59,828 nt of DNA from the NCBI GenBank assembly GCA_964343985.1, contig CAYFLJ010000002.1, positions 1 to 59,828 of the forward strand. Direction: 5' to 3'. The position numbers and the translations under genes are program-made. Within the stretch, counting starts at the first letter, position 1, and every line of letters starts with the position of its first letter. The stretch comes from an uncultured Thermoflexus sp. (GTDB lineage Bacteria; Chloroflexota; UBA11872; UBA12225). Below, piece after piece: positions 1 to 50,315 of the stretch. A model generated the notes under the pieces. It had not been told where the DNA came from, made no database searches, and was given only the letters and a program-made list of their open reading frames with translations.

Positions 1-1148
1 CGACCACCAACCGCGAAGAGGCGCTGGCTGGTGCCGATTTTGTCATCAACACCGCAGACGTCAAAGGGCACCATCACGCGCGCCGCGTCCGCGAATTGAC
101 GGCGGCGCATGGGTATTACTACTACGGTTCCGGCATCATTGGGCACTACTACAACTTCTCGCTCATGCTCGGAATTGCCCGAGACATGGAGCGAATATGT
201 CCAAATGCGTGGCTGATCCAGAGTGGGAACCCCGTCTTCGACGGCACAACCCTGATGACTCGGCAGACCAAGGTGAAAGTCATTGGTCTTTGCCACGGGC
301 ACTACGGGTACCTTGAGATCGCGCGGCGACTTGGCCTCGATCCGGCGCGGGTGACGTGGGAGGCGCCGGGCGTCAATCACGCGATCTGGTTGACGACCTT
401 CCTGCACGACGGCGAAGACGCCTATCCCATCTTAGATCGCTGGATCGCAAACGAGGCACCAGACTTTTGGGCCTCTCACGTTGCGCAACGGACGCACGAC
501 ATCCAGATGAGCCGGGGCGTCATTGACATGTATGAACTCTATGGCTTGATGCCGATTGGCGACACCCCTCGACAAGTTGGATGGTGGTATCACACGGATG
601 CTGATACGAAGCTTCGTTGGTTCGGACCTCCGTGGGGTGGGCCTGATACCGAGACCGCGCGTCCAGTGCACGTGCAGCAGTTAAGCGACCGGCTCGCACA
701 AGTTGATGCAGTCCTACGGGATGAGTCGGCGCAAGTGACTTCGGTGTTCGGTCGGGAACGGACGCGAGAACAGCAGGTGCCGATCATTGACGCGCTTGCG
801 AACGGTGTTGCGAATTGCTTTCAGGTGAACGTGCCGAACACCGCCGGGGTCCTCAAGGGCGTCGCCGAGGACGTCGTGGTTGAAGGCCAAGCGTGGATTG
901 ACCGCGGGGGCGTCCATCCGATGAAGCCGGCACGTGCGTTGCCGTCACGGATCTTTCGAGAGGAGGTGGCACCCAAGATTGATGAAATGGAACGTGGGCT
1001 CGAGGCGTTCATGTCAGGCGACCGTCGCCTTGTCTTGCTTGACATTCTGAATGATAAGCGAACGACTTCTCGGGAACAGGCCGAATCGGTGCTCAAAGCA
1101 CTCCTCGAGATGCCCGGCCACGAAGAGGCCGCGGCGCACTTTCGGTAG
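1..1148 (+). CDS. glycoside hydrolase family 4 (alpha-glucosidase/alpha-galactosidase-like), 5' end cut by window edge
   Basis: The reading frame of ORF 96..1148 stays open to the window start (..TTNREEALAGADFVINT..). It carries a GLCHGHYG motif and a GH4-like C-terminal half. Confidence 0.75.
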   Translation, partial: TTNREEALAGADFVINTADVKGHHHARRVRELTAAHGYYYYGSGIIGHYYNFSLMLGIARDMERICPNAWLIQSGNPVFDGTTLMTRQTKVKVIGLCHGHYGYLEIARRLGLDPARVTWEAPGVNHAIWLTTFLHDGEDAYPILDRWIANEAPDFWASHVAQRTHDIQMSRGVIDMYELYGLMPIGDTPRQVGWWYHTDADTKLRWFGPPWGGPDTETARPVHVQQLSDRLAQVDAVLRDESAQVTSVFGRERTREQQVPIIDALANGVANCFQVNVPNTAGVLKGVAEDVVVEGQAWIDRGGVHPMKPARALPSRIFREEVAPKIDEMERGLEAFMSGDRRLVLLDILNDKRTTSREQAESVLKALLEMPGHEEAAAHFR

Positions 1149-1252
1149 ATTTCGTCGCCCGGCGTGAGACGTCGTGGCTCTACCCACTGGAGCAGACGTT
1201 GAGAAGCGTAATCGTTTGCAACAGAAAGAAACCGGGGCGCTTGGCGGACCAG

Positions 1253-2314
1253 TTAGTCGCCGGGCGTCACGCCGATAAGCGACAACTCAGTCGCGCGGTG
1301 GCACGACACGAGATGCCCGGGACGGACCTCGGTGAGCGGAGGCGCCGAGACTTTGCACGCTTCGACGGCGTAGCGGCATCGCGGATGGAAGTGGCATCCG
1401 GGCGGCGGGTTTGACGCGTCGGGCACCTCACCGGCAAGGAAGATACGTTGCCCGCGATGGAGCGGGTCCGGCGTCGGCACCGCCGAGAGGAGCGCTTCGG
1501 AGTACGGGTGCCGCGGGCCGAAGAAGAGGTCTGCTGTTGGGGCCAACTCGACGATTCGCCCGACGTACATCACCGCCACGCGTGTGCTGACGTGTTGCAC
1601 GACCGAAAGGTCGTGCGCGACGAACACATACGTCAGACCAAGGCGCGATTGCAGGTCTTCGAGCAGGTTTAGGGTTTGCGCCTGAATGCTGACGTCAAGC
1701 GCCGAGACTGGCTCATCACACACCACGAGTTGCGGTTCGAGGGCAATGGCGCGGGCGATGCCGACACGTTGACGTTGCCCCCCGGAAAACGCGTGGGGGT
1801 AGCGCTCCATGTACTCCGGATGCAAGCCGACCAAGCGAAGCAGTTCGGCGACGCGATCCTCTAGAGCGGACCCAGACGCGACACCGTTGACAAGCAGTGG
1901 CTCGCCGATGATGTCTCGCAAGGTCATTCGCGGGTTCAGTGACCCGTACGGGTCCTGAAAAATCATTTGAACATTGCGCCGTACGTCGCGCAACTCAGAC
2001 GACGACGCGGTTGGAATGTTGACCCAACCGAGCTTTCGATCTCGGAAGTGGATGGTGCCGCCGGTCGGGTCGTATGCGCGCATCACGAGGCGGCTGGTCG
2101 TGGTTTTGCCGCACCCCGACTCGCCGACGAGGCCAAGTGTCTCGCCTTGACGCACGGTGAACGAGACGCCATCCACCGCTTTGACATGGCCAACCACCCT
2201 CGACCAAAAGCCTTTCCGGATCGGAAACCACTTTTGTAAATCGTGGGCAACGAGAAGGTCGGAGTCGGTCGCACCGGCAGGTGCATTGGCCTGGGTCATG
2301 GTGGCGATTGCCAT
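1253..2314 (-). CDS. ABC transporter ATP-binding protein, Opp/Dpp family (OppF/DppF-like)
   Basis: Walker [10 protein letters not shown], signature LSGGQRQR, Walker B LVVCDEP and the Opp-type C-terminal Cys-rich tail. The start is set at the internal ATG (MAIATMTQ), which forms an ATGA overlap with the upstream gene's stop at 2314. Confidence 0.9.
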
Positions 2315-3372
2315 CACGCAACCTCTCCGGCGCGGCTGCAACGCACCCAATGGCGTGGCGCTACTTCGCGGTATTCGGGGGCATCACACGTGCCTTGCAC
2401 GTAGTGGCGGCAACGTGTGTGGAAGGCGCAGCCTGTGGGAACGCTGAACGGATCTGGAACCATGCCTTGAATTGCCTCGAGGCGTTCATGTGCGCGACGC
2501 CCCAAGCGGGGCATCGACCGAAGCAGTGCTTGCGTGTAGGGATGCTGCGGGGCACGAAAGAGTTCGGTTACCGGAGCGCGTTCAACTTGTCGGCCCATGT
2601 ACATCACCACGACTTCATCAGCGATTTCCGCGATGACCCCTAGGTTGTGCGTGATGAATTGGATCGCCATGCCGTTCTGTTCTTGCAGACTGCGAACGAG
2701 GTCGAGGATCACTGCCTCGGTGGTCACGTCCAACGCGGTGGTTGGCTCATCGGCGATCAAGACGCTCGGGTTGCACGCTAACGCGATTCCGATTACGGCG
2801 CGTTGACGCATTCCGCCCGAAAGCTGATGCGGGAAGCGGTCGAGTACTGCGTCCGGTCGCGGTAGGCCGACTTGGCGCATCACCGATTCGGCGCGGGTTC
2901 GCGCTACGTCTTTGGTGGCGCCGGTATGTAGCCGGATGACCTCAGTAATTTGATGGCCAATCGTATGAATTGGGCTCAGGGCCGACATCGGTTCCTGAAA
3001 AATGTAGGCAATCTCGTTCCCTCGGATTGCACGGATCTCTTTACCCCGTGGGTCGAGGCTTGTCAGTTCAAGGTTCGTGCCGTCGCGGCGCGTCAACGTC
3101 ACCGTGCCGCCCACGTTCTTGCCGGGGCGCGGGACGATGCCGAGGACTGACTGCGCAGTTACAGACTTCCCACAACCACTTTCGCCCACGATTCCGAGCG
3201 TGCGACCGCGGTGGAGGGTGTAACTGACGCCGTCGACCGCTCTCACCGTCCCGGCGGTTAACGCAAAATGCGTTTTCAGGTCACGAACGTCGAGAACAAC
3301 TGGTGTATCGAGCGGGCGCGGTGCAGTTGCTTGTCCCACGCGCGCGGGCGGTTCGATGAGGTCGGTCGCCAT
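2314..3372 (-). CDS. ABC transporter ATP-binding protein, Opp/Dpp family (OppD/DppD-like)
   Basis: Walker A GESGCGKS, signature LSGGMRQR, Walker [12 protein letters not shown]. Confidence 0.9.
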
Positions 3373-46269: not shown

Positions 46270-47019
46270 ATGGTTGCAGCGCTTCCTGGTATTCGCATCG
46301 GCGCGACGTTGTCCATGGAGGCCGATGATCCGGCCCTCGGCGCAGACTCGTACAAGTGCCGCATTGAGGACTTCAAAGATGAGCGGCTGTGGCTAACGTG
46401 GCCCGCGAAACGAGGCCAAGCCGTAAAGCTGCAACTTGACGATTCTGTGTCGTTGGCACTGGCGCAGACCGCACCAAATGGGCAACCTGAAGCAACGCTG
46501 TATCTCGACTGCATTGTGGTCGACCGCTTGGTGCCGACCCCGCAGAACCCCGTCCCGCAGGTGGTTGTGCGTGTGGTTGCGGCTGGGCGCCAAGCCCCGC
46601 GCGGGTCGTACCGTCTCCCCGTGCACATGCCGCTGACCGACGTCGCGGTGAAGGTGTCGTCGTATGGGACGACTACGTGGAAACCAGTCGCGGCGTTTAT
46701 TCACGACATCAGCGCTGGCGGTCTCGGGATCACTTCAGACGAAGAGGTTGCGCAGGGTCTAAAAATGCGTGTGCGATTCCCTGTACCAGCGGGTTCTGGT
46801 GAAATGTCCGTCACCGTTGAGGTCATGAATGTGACTGATGTGTCACCGGGTGAACGGCTTTCAAAATACAAGCTGGGTGTGAAGTTTGACGACGCTACAC
46901 AGCAGCAGCGAGAGAGAATGGCGCGTGCAATTCATAGGGCGCAACTAGAGAACCGTCGTCGCGATCAAATCGCAGGCAAGATTGACCGGAGTGACGAACC
47001 GGAGGCACCAGCGACGTAG
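46270..47019 (+). CDS. PilZ-domain c-di-GMP receptor with a YcgR-like N-terminal domain
   Basis: RQAPRGSYR (RxxxR) and DISAGGLGI (DxSxxG) are PilZ motifs in the C-terminal half. The N-terminal half resembles PilZN. Confidence 0.75.
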   Translation: MVAALPGIRIGATLSMEADDPALGADSYKCRIEDFKDERLWLTWPAKRGQAVKLQLDDSVSLALAQTAPNGQPEATLYLDCIVVDRLVPTPQNPVPQVVVRVVAAGRQAPRGSYRLPVHMPLTDVAVKVSSYGTTTWKPVAAFIHDISAGGLGITSDEEVAQGLKMRVRFPVPAGSGEMSVTVEVMNVTDVSPGERLSKYKLGVKFDDATQQQRERMARAIHRAQLENRRRDQIAGKIDRSDEPEAPAT

Positions 47020-47074: not shown

Positions 47075-47299
47075 ATGGCGAAAAAACCACAGATGGTGTC
47101 CCTCGAAGACTTCGGGAAGCCACCGCCACCCCCGGCCAAGGCGCCATTTCCAATCTTCGCGTACTCGGTGCTGACCGTAATCGTGCTTGTCATCTTCGTT
47201 GGCGGGTGGTTCGCTTACAACTGGATGGACGCTCGTGCCATGGCCTTCTGGGGCAAGTCTGCCGAAATCGCGGACGCAGGACGTTTCGCGACGAAATAG
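47075..47299 (+). CDS. small single-TM protein, paralog 1 of 3 (74 aa)
   Basis: GGAGAG SD. The layout MVSLEDFGKPPPPP, then a TM segment, then FWGKSAEIADAGRFATK is shared with the two downstream ORFs. Confidence 0.75.
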   Translation: MAKKPQMVSLEDFGKPPPPPAKAPFPIFAYSVLTVIVLVIFVGGWFAYNWMDARAMAFWGKSAEIADAGRFATK

Positions 47300-47323
47300 G
47301 CAACGTGGACTAAACGCTTGGTG

Positions 47324-47385
47324 CCCTGATGTGTGTGGCGTCTTTCGGACCAATCATGTTCTTCTCAGGACATTCCCTGATGTGT
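47324..47385 (+). repeat. 11-nt direct repeat CCCTGATGTGT (47324..47334 and 47375..47385) in the spacer between paralogs 1 and 2
   Basis: Exact repeat read from the sequence. Confidence 0.5.
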
Positions 47386-47449
47386 TGAGCTCGGATAGGG
47401 CGCATCGTTGAGGCAGGTTCCAGGCCACTTGTGGCCGGGGAGGTCTCCG

Positions 47450-47674
47450 ATGCGCACCAGACCGCACATGGTTTCGCTTGAGGATTTTGGTAGGGCCCCG
47501 AAACCCGTTCCCCCGGCCCCCATCGATTGGCGGGCATATGTAATCTTAGTGCTCGTCGTCGGCACGATTATCGGTGGTGGATGGCTTAGCTGGGACACTG
47601 TGACCAATCGCGCGCTTGCGTATTGGTCGAAGTCGGCGGAACTTGCCGACCAAGGGCGGTTTAACACGCGTTAG
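47450..47674 (+). CDS. small single-TM protein, paralog 2 of 3 (74 aa)
   Basis: GGGGAGG SD upstream of the ATG at 47450. MVSLEDFGRAPKPVPP, then a TM segment, then YWSKSAELADQGRFNTR. The ORF-track TTG start at 47408 is not supported by the paralog alignment. Confidence 0.75.
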   Translation: MRTRPHMVSLEDFGRAPKPVPPAPIDWRAYVILVLVVGTIIGGGWLSWDTVTNRALAYWSKSAELADQGRFNTR

Positions 47675-47780
47675 CAGGTTGGCATCTATGGCCTTTTGGC
47701 CTCGCGAGTGGTGCCACCTGCTTAGATTGGTGTCGCTCGTGACACATCCGTTGCACGGCCTGATTCGAGCGCAGCGCGTG

Positions 47781-47808
47781 TTGAAAATGGCCTCTCCGTT
47801 GGTAGAAT
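47781..47808 (+). promoter_or_regulatory. sigma-70-like promoter for paralog 3
   Basis: TTGAAA, a 16-nt spacer, then TAGAAT. It lies about 40 nt upstream of the AAGGAGAA SD and ATG. Confidence 0.55.
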
Positions 47809-47847
47809 TTGCATGTCACTTGACTGCAACTACTCAAGGAGAAGCCA

Positions 47848-48069
47848 ATGCGACGCCCGACAATGGTGAAGCTCGAAGATTTTGGCAAGCCCCCGCCGCC
47901 TCCCCCGCCGCGCCCCTTTGACGTGCGTTCACACGTGACGTTCGCGGCGATTGTTGTGGGCATCTTTCTCCTAGGTTCTGCCGGCTGGGATTGGGCGACA
48001 GAGCAGGCGAGCTCCTACTGGTCTCGCAGTGCGGAAATCGCTGATCAAGGGCGCTTCGGCACGCGGTAA
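47848..48069 (+). CDS. small single-TM protein, paralog 3 of 3 (73 aa)
   Basis: AAGGAGAA SD. MVKLEDFGKPPPPPPP, then a TM segment, then YWSRSAEIADQGRFGTR. Confidence 0.78.
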   Translation: MRRPTMVKLEDFGKPPPPPPPRPFDVRSHVTFAAIVVGIFLLGSAGWDWATEQASSYWSRSAEIADQGRFGTR

Positions 48070-48157
48070 GCGCCATGTCCTAGTGCTCGCACGTGCACCC
48101 GCTTGGCGTGACTTGAGGAGGACGATCGATGTAGTCGTGGCCGGTACAATCCGGGTG

Positions 48158-49021
48158 ATGACGGCATCTTTACCTTCCGAACCGGTACGCCTCGGCCAAG
48201 TTCTTGAAGACTTCAGACCGAGCGCGCCTCCAGAGGCATTTCCGCGAATTCGCCGGTTCGTGACCTTTGTTGGCGCTACTTCGGCACTCGAATCGGTGCA
48301 GGCCTTCAAAATTGAAGAATTTTTGAAGCTCCAAGTATCAACGTCGACACCTCCGCGTTTATATATGGAGGCGCTGAAAGCGTACTTTGCGTTTGCGCAG
48401 AAGGCTGGTCACATAACCGCCGACCCCATGAAGAACGTGCGGTTGCCGCGAGCAACCGGAATCGCCGCGACCGCCGCGCGCCGCACCGCCGCAGCCTCAA
48501 CAAATTCGTCTGCGACGCCGGTTACACCGGTGGCATCGCGCGCCGTTGAGGTGGAGTACGTCACGCGCGCCCGTCAACAAGAAATGGTCGCGGAGCTTGA
48601 TCGCTTAAAGGTTGATGAGCGGCAGCGGATAAGTGCGTTGCTTGAGGAAGCGATCAAGGACGGCGACCTCTCCGAAAATGCGGGCTACGACGATGCCAAA
48701 ATGCGCCAAGGGCTACTCGAAGCACGCATTCGCGAGCTGGAGGATAAGTTGCGCAGGGCGGCGTTGATTGAAGATCAAGACGTTGACGTTGCGACCGTCG
48801 GCGTTGGCAGCCGAGTGACGCTGCGGGATCTTCAGGATGACGAGGATGTGGAATACACCCTCGTTGGGCCGGAAGAGACTGACCCTGCGCGGTTCCGAAT
48901 ATCTCATCGGTCGCCCGTTGGCAAGGCTTTGCTCGGCAAACGTCAAGGCGAAGAAGCCGACGTTTCGACGCCGAGCGGGACGCATCGGTACCGAATCGTC
49001 TCCGTTGAACGCGACTCGTAG
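48158..49021 (+). CDS. GreA-family transcript cleavage/elongation factor fused to an N-terminal integrase-SAM-like (core-binding-like) domain
   Basis: The C-terminal half has a GreA coiled coil (GDLSENAGYDDAK) and a globular domain (ISHRSPVGKALLGK). In the N-terminal half, SxxTPPRLYMEALKAYFAFAQKAGHITADPMKNVRLPR resembles the phage-integrase N-terminal SAM-like fold. TACAAT lies 7 nt upstream of the ATG. Confidence 0.75.
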   Translation: MTASLPSEPVRLGQVLEDFRPSAPPEAFPRIRRFVTFVGATSALESVQAFKIEEFLKLQVSTSTPPRLYMEALKAYFAFAQKAGHITADPMKNVRLPRATGIAATAARRTAAASTNSSATPVTPVASRAVEVEYVTRARQQEMVAELDRLKVDERQRISALLEEAIKDGDLSENAGYDDAKMRQGLLEARIRELEDKLRRAALIEDQDVDVATVGVGSRVTLRDLQDDEDVEYTLVGPEETDPARFRISHRSPVGKALLGKRQGEEADVSTPSGTHRYRIVSVERDS

Positions 49022-49071: not shown

Positions 49072-49614
49072 ATGCCAGCGATCAGCACAGCAGTTCAGGT
49101 GGTCGTGGCGTTTGGAGGTGCCTACCTCGTCGCTCTTTGGTTCAGCATGATTGTCTGGACCTATTACGACATTCGAGCTCGCTCACAAGACATTTACGTC
49201 CACATATTCGCGACGGCACTCGTTCTGGTCTTCAACGTTTTTGGGCTGCTTCTGTATTTCATTCTTCGTCCTCGCGAAACGTTGGCCGAGGCGTACGAGA
49301 GGTCACTTGAGGAGGAGAGCCTCCTGCAAGAGCTTGAAGATCGTCCACATTGTCCGAGCTGCAGACAGCGTGTGAGTCCGGACTTCATGGTCTGCCCGAG
49401 TTGCCACGTGATCTTGAAGAACCGATGCGTCTCGCCGTCGTGCGCGCGCTTGGTGAACCCGCGCTGGGAACTCTGCCCGTTTTGCGGGACGCTTCAAGTT
49501 GGCGACTTGGGCATCGATGACAGCGATGCGCCACACGGATCCAACGTGCCGATTGTCCCGATAAGCGTATTCGGGCCGGACACGACCAGTTCGAGCGGCA
49601 CTGGCACGGTCTAA
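49072..49614 (+). CDS. membrane protein with a PLD-N-like TM region and a double zinc ribbon
   Basis: WFSMIVWTYYDI..LLLYFILRP TM pair, then CPSC..CPSC and CVSPSC..CPFC. The ORF opens at a TTG at 49027; the ATG at 49072 is preferred. Confidence 0.65.
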   Translation: MPAISTAVQVVVAFGGAYLVALWFSMIVWTYYDIRARSQDIYVHIFATALVLVFNVFGLLLYFILRPRETLAEAYERSLEEESLLQELEDRPHCPSCRQRVSPDFMVCPSCHVILKNRCVSPSCARLVNPRWELCPFCGTLQVGDLGIDDSDAPHGSNVPIVPISVFGPDTTSSSGTGTV

Positions 49615-49619
49615 CTGGC

Positions 49620-50315
49620 GTGGCTAAGCCGTCGCCGTTGGTGCTTGCGTCGCGCTCGCCTCGACGTCAAGACGCAATGAAGGCACTTGGTTTGGCTTTT
49701 GACGTCGCGGTGTCGGACGTGGAACTCACGCTTCCTCCCGGCGAAGACCCCTGTGACCCAGTACCTGTTGCCGTCGCGAAAGTGGTCGACGTGGCACGGA
49801 CCGCCTCGAACTCTGCGCAGGTGCTAGGCGCAGACACAATCGTGGTGGACGGAACCAGACCAATTGGCAAACCGGTCGATGCCGAAGATGCGGTCACGAT
49901 GCTCATGGGATTACGAGGGCGAACCCATCGAGTCCGCACCGGTGTGGCACTCTACGAGCGCGGCCGCTTGGTCACGTTCGAGGTCGCGTCTCCCGTTCAG
50001 ATGAGGGACTACGACCGCGACGTCGTCGAGCGGTACGTCGCGACCGGCCAAGCGCTCGACTGTGCCGGTAGCTACGACGCCCGAAGCGCCGGCGAGCTGC
50101 TCATCGCTGGCATCGACGGCTGCATGTCTGCGGTTATCGGCTTTCCTGTGGGTGCGGTGGTAAGGGTCTTGCGCCATGAGACCGGACACACGGGATTGAC
50201 GGACGCCATTCCGGCGTGTGAGGTGCTCTGCGGTACGCCGTGCCGAGCACGCAACGCGGCGACGGCAAAAGCCTGCGACGCGTCGCGCTTCACGAGGCGC
50301 ACTTTTTTTGCGTAG
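49620..50315 (+). CDS. maf: Maf-family nucleoside triphosphate pyrophosphatase
   Basis: LVLASRSPRRQDAMKALGL and ..GADTIVV..GKP.. are typical Maf motifs. Confidence 0.85.
   Translation: MAKPSPLVLASRSPRRQDAMKALGLAFDVAVSDVELTLPPGEDPCDPVPVAVAKVVDVARTASNSAQVLGADTIVVDGTRPIGKPVDAEDAVTMLMGLRGRTHRVRTGVALYERGRLVTFEVASPVQMRDYDRDVVERYVATGQALDCAGSYDARSAGELLIAGIDGCMSAVIGFPVGAVVRVLRHETGHTGLTDAIPACEVLCGTPCRARNAATAKACDASRFTRRTFFA

Follow-up and report, generated by a model that had tools for sequence, protein, structure and literature searches.

In the textbook view, Gre factors are single-purpose proteins in which a coiled coil is joined to a globular domain. The locus considered here raises the question of what a GreA would do with roughly 130 further residues at its N terminus. 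It lies in a stretch of 59,828 nucleotides, referred to below as the window, from an uncultured Thermoflexus sp. of the phylum Chloroflexota (contig CAYFLJ010000002.1, positions 1 to 59,828 of the forward strand). An open reading frame (ORF) on the forward strand at positions 48158 to 49021 encodes a 287-residue protein (P0001), here called long GreA, that was assigned on the basis of Pfam and NCBIfam cut-offs. A preliminary description, made from the sequence of the window alone, had read the protein as a GreA fused to an integrase-like domain and had linked it to three small membrane proteins encoded upstream by a shared LEDF motif. Here, we report that the N-terminal residues hold a recombinase-type domain joined to a GreA with a canonical tip, that the fusion is found across the Chloroflexota, and that the shared motif is very probably a coincidence.

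RESULTS

The N-terminal residues of long GreA form a recombinase-type core-binding domain

Approximately 133 residues stand before the GreA part of P0001. They comprise an N-terminal domain (residues 1 to 98; positions 48158 to 48451, forward strand), delimited by profile, fold, and AlphaFold2 (AF2) evidence, and a disordered basic linker rich in Ala, Thr, and Pro (residues 99 to 130; positions 48452 to 48547, forward strand). The core-binding domain itself spans residues ~10 to 98. The segment that the preliminary description had likened to the SAM-like domains of phage integrases and XerD corresponds to residues 50 to 98, and it overlaps the sole Pfam hint in this region, a match to Phage_int_SAM_5 at residues 51 to 94 (E, 0.2; 12.5 bits versus a gathering score of 22.3). 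The weakness of that hint counts against the assignment, as the domain on its own reached no Pfam SAM-like gathering threshold and its best single-sequence E values were 0.002 to 0.2. Thus, Pfam left the N terminus unnamed, but profiles built from the family did name it.

Profile A2, built from five close relatives, was run against 1.84 billion representative proteins and matched 14 of them: 11 Gre fusions or fragments, one protein with TPR repeats, and two genuine tyrosine recombinases (P0021 and P0022), the last two being matched across their Pfam SAM-like domains at E values of 3e-4 and 6e-4. When a profile of 24 sequences (A3) was compared with all PDB sequences, it matched the N-terminal domain of the mycobacteriophage Brujita integrase (5vfz_A; E, 1.8e-8) and another phage integrase N-terminal domain (2kj5; E, 0.002), with XerD and further integrase N-terminal domains ranked lower. 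Within Chloroflexota genomes, A3 matched a 326-residue recombinase (L052; E, 2.5e-11) that has both PF00589 and SAM_1/SAM_4. Weaker signals pointed the same way, as NCBIfam gave a weak XerD match at residues 31 to 99 and the protein-language-model neighbors of the domain were integrase SAM-like clusters.

The predicted structure likewise placed the domain among recombinases. AF2 predicted five helices (residues 12 to 22, 27 to 38, 49 to 60, 66 to 82, and 90 to 93) with a predicted local distance difference test score (pLDDT) of 77 for the domain alone and ~90 for the domain within the full-length model. The best 27 Foldseek matches of the domain model were all tyrosine recombinase core-binding domains (lambda Int, Tn1549 Int, and XerD among them) with template modeling scores of 0.50 to 0.73. 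An exhaustive fold alignment (VIA) covering 48,161 PDB representatives put 23 chains on top, every one a recombinase core-binding domain (Z, 6.9 to 12.1), ahead of an unrelated chain at a Z of 5.3. Scores were 12.1 for lambda Int (1z1b) and 10.5 for XerD, within a range of 9.3 to 12.1 for the closest comparators (lambda Int 1z1b/2oxo, XerD 1a0p, and Brujita Int 5vfz). Moreover, the domain terminates in DPMKNVRLPR, which corresponds to the D/NP...P(K/R) stretch found in recombinases just before their inter-domain linker (cf. L052) and, like them, follows the pattern D/NP-x-x-x-[VL]-R-x-P-[RK].

Unlike those recombinases, long GreA has no catalytic domain, as the preliminary description had also noted. 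PF00589 was not matched in P0001, residues 131 to 287 are GreA in its place, and the Pfam SAM-like models stay below threshold. The protein cannot be a recombinase because the catalytic domain is missing and with it the active-site Arg-His-Arg-Tyr. We conclude that the N-terminal domain of long GreA is, almost certainly, a tyrosine recombinase core-binding (SAM-like) domain.

We note as a separate observation that A3 also weakly matched residues 73 to 109 of PDB 9i5v chain 14 (E, 0.046), which has 401 residues and was deposited under the name of the ribosome-associated inhibitor RaiA. The chain is unusually long for RaiA and might contain a related helical domain.

The C-terminal module is a canonical GreA

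The GreA module (positions 48548 to 49018, forward strand) comprises a coiled coil (helices at residues 137 to 167 and 175 to 200), a tip carrying D170 and E173, and a C-terminal globular domain, as indicated by Pfam and PDB matches. PF03449 (GreA_GreB_N) matched residues 134 to 201 (E, 8.6e-21; 74.4 bits versus a cut-off of 24.5), and PF01272, the GreA/GreB C-terminal domain, matched residues 213 to 284 (E, 1.8e-25; 89.2 bits versus 26.9). Two NCBIfam cut-offs were also passed, those of TIGR01462 (160.2 bits versus 139) and NF001263 (159.6 bits versus 145). The PDB matches of this part were a Thermus GreA/Gfh1 chimera (4wqt; E, 2.6e-24) and Escherichia coli GreA (1grj; E, 1.4e-21). The C-terminal 155 residues thus contain the same two domains as GreA of E. 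coli and Thermus (1grj and 4wqt; PF03449 plus PF01272; TIGR01462), and the preliminary description of this part as a typical GreA is borne out. Classical GreA begins at the coiled coil, whereas long GreA adds ~130 residues in the form of a folded basic domain and a disordered linker.

The tip of the coiled coil, GDLSENAGYDDAK, has the motif GDL-x-ENA-x-Y with both catalytic acidic residues. D170 and E173 align with D41 and E44 of E. coli GreA (1grj), and D170, L171, E173, and N174 are invariant across 21 orthologs. Two acidic tip residues are a functionally important feature of Gre factors (PMC4598747).

The genome encodes a second Gre homolog, a 164-residue protein on another contig (G000:C254:215-706, locus L002). 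Its tip reads VGSFGDASEP versus HGDLKENAEY in E. coli, such that D41 is replaced by Ser and E44 by Asp, and it falls below all NCBIfam GreA cut-offs (113.7 for TIGR01462 and 132.1 for NF001263). The same degenerate tip occurs in short paralogs of the same family (f1) and of another family of the order (f2). The fused protein is most likely the cleavage-competent GreA because its tip is canonical and it passes the cut-offs, neither of which is true of the short paralog. The preliminary description was therefore correct about the make-up of the protein but not in treating it as an extra, unusual GreA, since it is the short paralog that diverges. We conclude that long GreA is likely to be the main cleavage factor of the lineage.

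The short paralog is divergent and may perhaps act as a Gfh1-like modulator. Gfh1 and Rv3788, two paralogs of Gre, are inhibitors and not stimulators (PMC4598747), and the short protein resembles them in having a Gre fold with an altered tip beside a canonical factor. It is unlike Gfh1 in having Ser at the D41 position, whereas Gfh1 keeps the acidic tip residues.

Translation starts upstream of the N-terminal domain

The ORF begins with an ATG at 48158 and ends with a stop codon at 49019 to 49021; the start at 48145 given in the preliminary description is the first base of a TACAAT box and not of the ATG. Residues 1 to 135 are 65 to 99% identical to close relatives in a protein collection, several of which begin at the same Met-Thr, and the N-terminal region aligns throughout 19 loci in a codon-level alignment. 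In whole-genome searches, the long form turned up in family f1 itself, in f2 of its order, and in f4 of its class. In two loci (L011 and L012), a start further upstream is ruled out because a stop codon lies just 3 to 4 codons 5′ of the same ATG.

The preliminary description had also allowed that the true start might lie downstream. The 5′ part of the frame would then be untranslated and the product would be an ordinary GreA of 155 residues. Nothing favors such a start other than the lack of a Shine-Dalgarno sequence before the ATG at 48158. A downstream start is excluded because residues 10 to 100 are conserved as protein and the domain is predicted to fold confidently. Conservation at the protein level extends from the same genus (66 to 94% identity) to other classes, the predicted models of the domain are confident, the two modules share a single unbroken frame in at least 63 genomes, and neither an internal start nor a ribosome-binding site within the frame shows conservation. 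We reject the ordinary 155-residue GreA, the probability of which we consider negligible, and conclude that the conserved N-terminal region is translated from the ATG at 48158.

The fusion is found across the Chloroflexota

A sample of 301 genomes spanning the Chloroflexota was searched with a full-length profile (A5). One ORF matching both modules (A5 positions ~4 to 279) was present in at least 63 of the 301 genomes, representing more than 25 families, a number that is a lower bound because it was drawn from the best 150 of 447 A5 matches. One of the 63 genomes, G252, is unpublished, and the phylum-wide claim is independent of it. Among the matches listed, the fused GreA was the sole match at an E value of 1e-30 or below in many genomes of 0.9 to 1.9 Mb, several of which are complete. 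Thirteen distant fusions were read, and all had the helix-1 pattern L-x-x-A-x-x-x-[FY]-L, a W/Y-x-G motif, a basic linker, and a coiled-coil tip of DKDF(R/H/K)ENAP or a close variant. Pfam annotated just the two Gre domains in each of six distant fusions scanned (6/6) and left the N-terminal domain unannotated.

The contigs of close relatives came from freshwater Chloroflexota metagenome-assembled genomes, in which eight loci were found. A family of only 8 to 14 members was considered and rejected, as whole-genome profile searches find many more; the family had appeared tiny because the narrow query limited sensitivity.

In a maximum-likelihood tree of Gre modules, all 23 long forms were grouped together by a branch supported at 100/99. 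The tree combined them with 13 short forms, had no outgroup, and drew its short forms from the same class only, a composition that tempers what it can say about origin. The preliminary description had asked whether the fusion recurs in relatives, and it does so phylum-wide. We conclude that the distribution fits a single ancient fusion inherited across much of the Chloroflexota, and that the fusion is probably the main GreA of the phylum.

The N-terminal domain may tether GreA to DNA

By analogy with E. coli GreA, the GreA module would bind the rim of the RNA polymerase secondary channel, insert its coiled coil, and stimulate cleavage of backtracked RNA. By analogy with recombinases, the N-terminal domain would bind DNA near the transcription complex on a flexible tether. 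The ~30-residue linker between the domain and the coiled coil has a pLDDT of 34 to 40 and a net charge of +3, it differs in length and sequence among orthologs, and the full-length model has a predicted template modeling score of 0.46. Extending from the outer end of the coiled coil, such a linker would let the domain reach DNA flanking the polymerase, and the DNA tether would raise the local concentration or the residence time of the factor at template-engaged polymerases.

The N-terminal domain of the orthologs is basic, with a median isoelectric point (pI) of 9.9, a median net charge of +4, and eight columns in which Lys or Arg makes up at least 70% (R32, R33, K51, R67, K74, K92, R95, and R98). 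The Gre module is, by contrast, acidic (pI, 4.8; net charge, -11). Nucleic acid binding is plausible because the domain is basic (pI of 9.9 and eight basic columns) and because its structural neighbors include DNA-bound regulators, and we put the chances that the domain binds nucleic acid at about even. Several considerations weigh on the other side. Orthologs of family f4 have a net charge of just +1 to +2 in the N-terminal domain, and we infer DNA binding, RNA polymerase binding, and cleavage activity of long GreA alike from sequence. Moreover, the core-binding domain of recombinases binds DNA jointly with the catalytic domain, and isolated core-binding domains bind weakly. Because of that weak binding, a lone domain might have been reused for protein contacts.

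If so, the domain would be a protein-protein adaptor that docks GreA on a lineage-specific surface of the Chloroflexota RNA polymerase or on some other partner. In this class, the partner could be a zinc-ribbon membrane protein, which would sequester GreA at the membrane or release it there. The gene for that protein (positions 49072 to 49614, forward strand) lies directly downstream of long GreA in the same orientation and encodes a highly conserved protein composed of a two-pass (PLDc_N-like) membrane part and a double zinc ribbon (Pfam DZR), with two transmembrane helices, a conserved LRPRETLAEAYERSLEEE segment, and eight cysteines; the protein had no NCBIfam match. Wherever long GreA occurs in genomes of families f1, f2, and f4, the full-length gene directly follows it. 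In class relatives without long GreA, only the membrane part finds matches, and these lie inside different proteins. We conclude that the zinc-ribbon gene and long GreA form a real class-level association. The adaptor alternative also draws on the weak DNA binding of lone core-binding domains in general and on the gene order of family f1, in which aroB, a PilZ gene, one to three genes for small membrane peptides, long GreA, the zinc-ribbon gene, and maf follow one another. From PilZ to maf this order is fixed within the family, in that it was kept in most loci read, with a peptide gene not found in two loci and PilZ not found in two.

Two lines of evidence favor the DNA tether over an adaptor. 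First, many other classes have the fusion, and the loci examined there had no zinc-ribbon, PilZ, or peptide neighbor beside long GreA. The zinc-ribbon protein, PilZ, and the peptides cannot be the general partner of the domain because distant fusions have other neighbors. Second, the conserved basic surface suits nucleic acid better than protein. In addition, families f1, f2, and f4 may be one clade, and so the co-occurrence with the zinc-ribbon gene could reflect a single event. We consider a protein-protein adaptor unlikely.

Another way in which the domain could act on DNA is by recognizing specific sequences or structures. Long GreA would then be a locus-specific factor, for example, in promoter escape or anti-arrest at defined genes. 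Core-binding domains do contribute to site recognition by recombinases, and among the structural neighbors of the domain are MrpR and SroF, which are recombinase-like repressors, and an ALOG domain on specific DNA. Against a locus-specific factor, long GreA is, among the matches listed, the sole strong Gre homolog in several genomes of 0.9 to 1.9 Mb, which argues for a general housekeeping role. No repeated site that could serve as a target was found, none having been looked for. A sequence-specific role is thus improbable, and a general DNA tether is the arrangement that we carry forward.

The LEDF motif shared with upstream peptides is very probably a chance match

Three tandem genes for small single-pass membrane proteins lie upstream of long GreA (positions 47075 to 48069, forward strand), each with its own Shine-Dalgarno sequence. 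They are treated here as genomic context only. The ORFs (47075 to 47299, 47450 to 47674, and 47848 to 48069) encode 73 to 74 residues and one LEDF each. In long GreA, the tetrapeptide occupies residues 16 to 19 (positions 48203 to 48214, forward strand). The four copies within 1.1 kb that the preliminary description pointed out are indeed present, the peptides having (S/K)LEDFG followed by a proline run and long GreA having VLEDFRPSAPP at residues 15 to 25. It had been proposed that the copies form a short linear motif followed by prolines through which GreA and the membrane peptides bind, or compete for, one partner.

Some observations support that proposal. LEDF is found in four adjacent proteins and is rare in the long ORFs of the genome, with 3 occurrences in 1.24 million residues, and most genera of the family have a peptide gene ahead of long GreA. 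When the GreA protein was shuffled, the first 30 residues of the shuffled protein shared a tetrapeptide with the N termini of the peptides in 1.3% of cases, the most restrictive form of the test and one chosen post hoc. Less restrictive forms gave 11% for any tetrapeptide shared with the first 20 residues of the peptides and 55% for any shared with the whole of the three peptides.

Comparison of orthologs nevertheless argues against a shared function. In GreA, LEDF sits on helix 1 (residues 12 to 19/22) of the folded domain, and, as in the first helix of recombinases, conservation there is confined to the aromatic position. The same position reads LDEY in an ortholog of the same genus, which also lacks the Pro-Pro, and LDDF, LDDY, RDEF, HLAF, WQEF, or FTQY in other orthologs, with the prolines not kept; in other classes it reads THF, TKF, STY, or GDY. 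The peptides, by contrast, keep (S/K)LEDFG and the proline run in the two closest genera (g1 and g5), one g5 locus having SLDDFG, and their motif is looser in genera g7 and g8 (LSEFG and SLDRF). The motifs of GreA and of the peptides do not covary across relatives, and phylum-wide fusions occur without the peptides. We reject LEDF as a conserved functional motif of GreA and conclude that its presence in both GreA and the peptides is very probably due to chance. A common or competed binding partner is accordingly a highly improbable explanation.

In the two loci from g7 and g8 (L010, positions 2444 to 2611, reverse strand; L011, positions 1104 to 1298, forward strand), one small membrane-peptide gene was seen upstream of long GreA, with a relaxed N-terminal motif (PLSEFGKEPPPPP; SLDRFLEGEPPPP).

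A −10-like hexamer abuts the start codon in the family

A −10-like hexamer, TACAAT, is located at positions 48145 to 48150 (forward strand), exactly 7 nucleotides 5′ of the ATG as the preliminary description had read it. Across 12 family f1 loci from at least six genera, TAnAAT precedes the ATG with a spacing of 7 nucleotides in 10, 6 nucleotides in one, and 9 nucleotides in one. Genome-wide, TAnAAT ending 6 to 8 nucleotides before an ATG was found at 10 of 54,668 ATGs and at 2 of the 2,219 first ATGs of ORFs of at least 150 residues, and the geometry at long GreA therefore exceeds chance expectation. Moreover, the 7 nucleotides between TACAAT and the ATG contain no Shine-Dalgarno or GGAGG-like element. 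The earlier suggestion of a leaderless transcript gains from the conservation of this geometry across genera of the family.

Other features of the region fit a leaderless start poorly. A consensus promoter scan found no −35 element and does not call the TACAAT site because the −35 is lacking. Nor did a scan detect a terminator in the interval from the third peptide gene to the GreA ATG, which leaves room for leadered read-through transcripts. Furthermore, relatives of the same order in genus g9 (L014 to L016, L020, and L021) start at GTG behind a GGAGG Shine-Dalgarno sequence, and their TAGAAT box lies ~45 nucleotides further upstream. Because of the GGAGG and GTG start in g9, leaderless expression would be a family-level trait, and the way in which translation starts seems to have changed within the order. 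We conclude that in family f1 long GreA is probably expressed from a leaderless transcript, made from a promoter whose −10 box is placed such that transcription would begin at the A of the ATG.

Directly 5′ of the hexamer is GTGGCCGG (positions 48137 to 48144, forward strand), which is kept in 7 of 8 loci of g1 and g5 (L003 to L009 included); the eighth has GTCGGCCGG in its place. The proteins of the two genera are only ~62% identical. The conservation of GTGGCCGG might reflect an extended promoter element or an operator.

Between positions 46900 and 50400, a complete sigma-70-type promoter was matched at one site only, 47781 to 47808 (forward strand), upstream of the third small membrane-protein gene; it consists of TTGAAA, a 16-nucleotide spacer, and TAGAAT with a TG extension. 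Downstream, the only convincing terminator-like site is a GC-rich hairpin with a T run at the end of maf (hairpin, 50285 to 50300; site to 50310; forward strand). The position of this site, after maf, suggests that long GreA, the zinc-ribbon gene, and maf form an operon. We conclude that long GreA is probably cotranscribed with the zinc-ribbon membrane protein gene and maf.

DISCUSSION

Long Gre proteins as such are not new. NCBIfam NF004969 (718 residues; "transcript cleavage factor/unknown domain fusion protein") and NF011309 (906 residues; GreA) also place a C-terminal Gre module within a longer protein. Their N termini are far larger, however, and P0001 matches only their Gre parts, its own extension being one 100-residue recombinase-type domain. 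Thus, Gre fusions with N termini of "unknown domain" were already known, and what is new is the identification of an accessory domain that is present phylum-wide. In a search that spanned part of the literature, no paper was found that connects GreA with a SAM-like or core-binding domain. In the proteome of Dehalococcoides, the GreA cbdbA743 is expressed and is acetylated at K17 (PMC7918482); should this protein be the long form, K17 would fall within the N-terminal domain.

Recombinase parts have been reused in transcription control elsewhere. The SPbeta protein MrpR (8a0a), the phi3T protein SroF (9rd5), and the plant ALOG domain (8p5q) resemble the N-terminal domain of long GreA in fold, with Z scores of 7.4 to 7.5 for the first two and 4.8 for ALOG. 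Unlike long GreA, these proteins act alone as DNA-binding regulators, and none is fused to a secondary-channel factor. Another parallel to the proposed logic is Myxococcus CarD, in which a domain that interacts with RNA polymerase is fused to an HMGA-type DNA-binding domain (PMC2919716). CarD is a functional analogue, with one module on RNA polymerase and the other on DNA. CarD differs from long GreA in its unrelated folds, in using another site on the polymerase, and in giving no catalytic assistance.

Taken as a whole, the explanation that we favor, by a modest measure of confidence, is that long GreA is a two-module, cleavage-competent GreA in which a recombinase-derived domain would act as a DNA tether. 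A broader version would make it the principal cleavage factor of the phylum, tethered to DNA by a domesticated recombinase domain and, in this class, also wired to a membrane module consisting of a PilZ receptor for cyclic di-GMP, the small membrane peptides, and the zinc-ribbon protein. We offer that version tentatively and consider it rather doubtful in its full extent.

The analysis flags an annotation gap, as Pfam and NCBIfam leave ~100 residues of the scanned proteins unannotated, and it draws attention to the degenerate-tip short Gre paralog as a possible Gfh1-like regulator. It also provides a bacterial instance of a recombinase domain reused in transcription and a concrete, testable hypothesis that a secondary-channel factor is recruited through DNA. 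If the hypothesis is true, rescue of backtracked polymerases in these bacteria would rely on a DNA-bound factor that travels or waits on the template rather than on one that diffuses freely. The same would hold in Dehalococcoidia-sized genomes, in which the fused GreA is, among the matches listed, the only strong Gre homolog.

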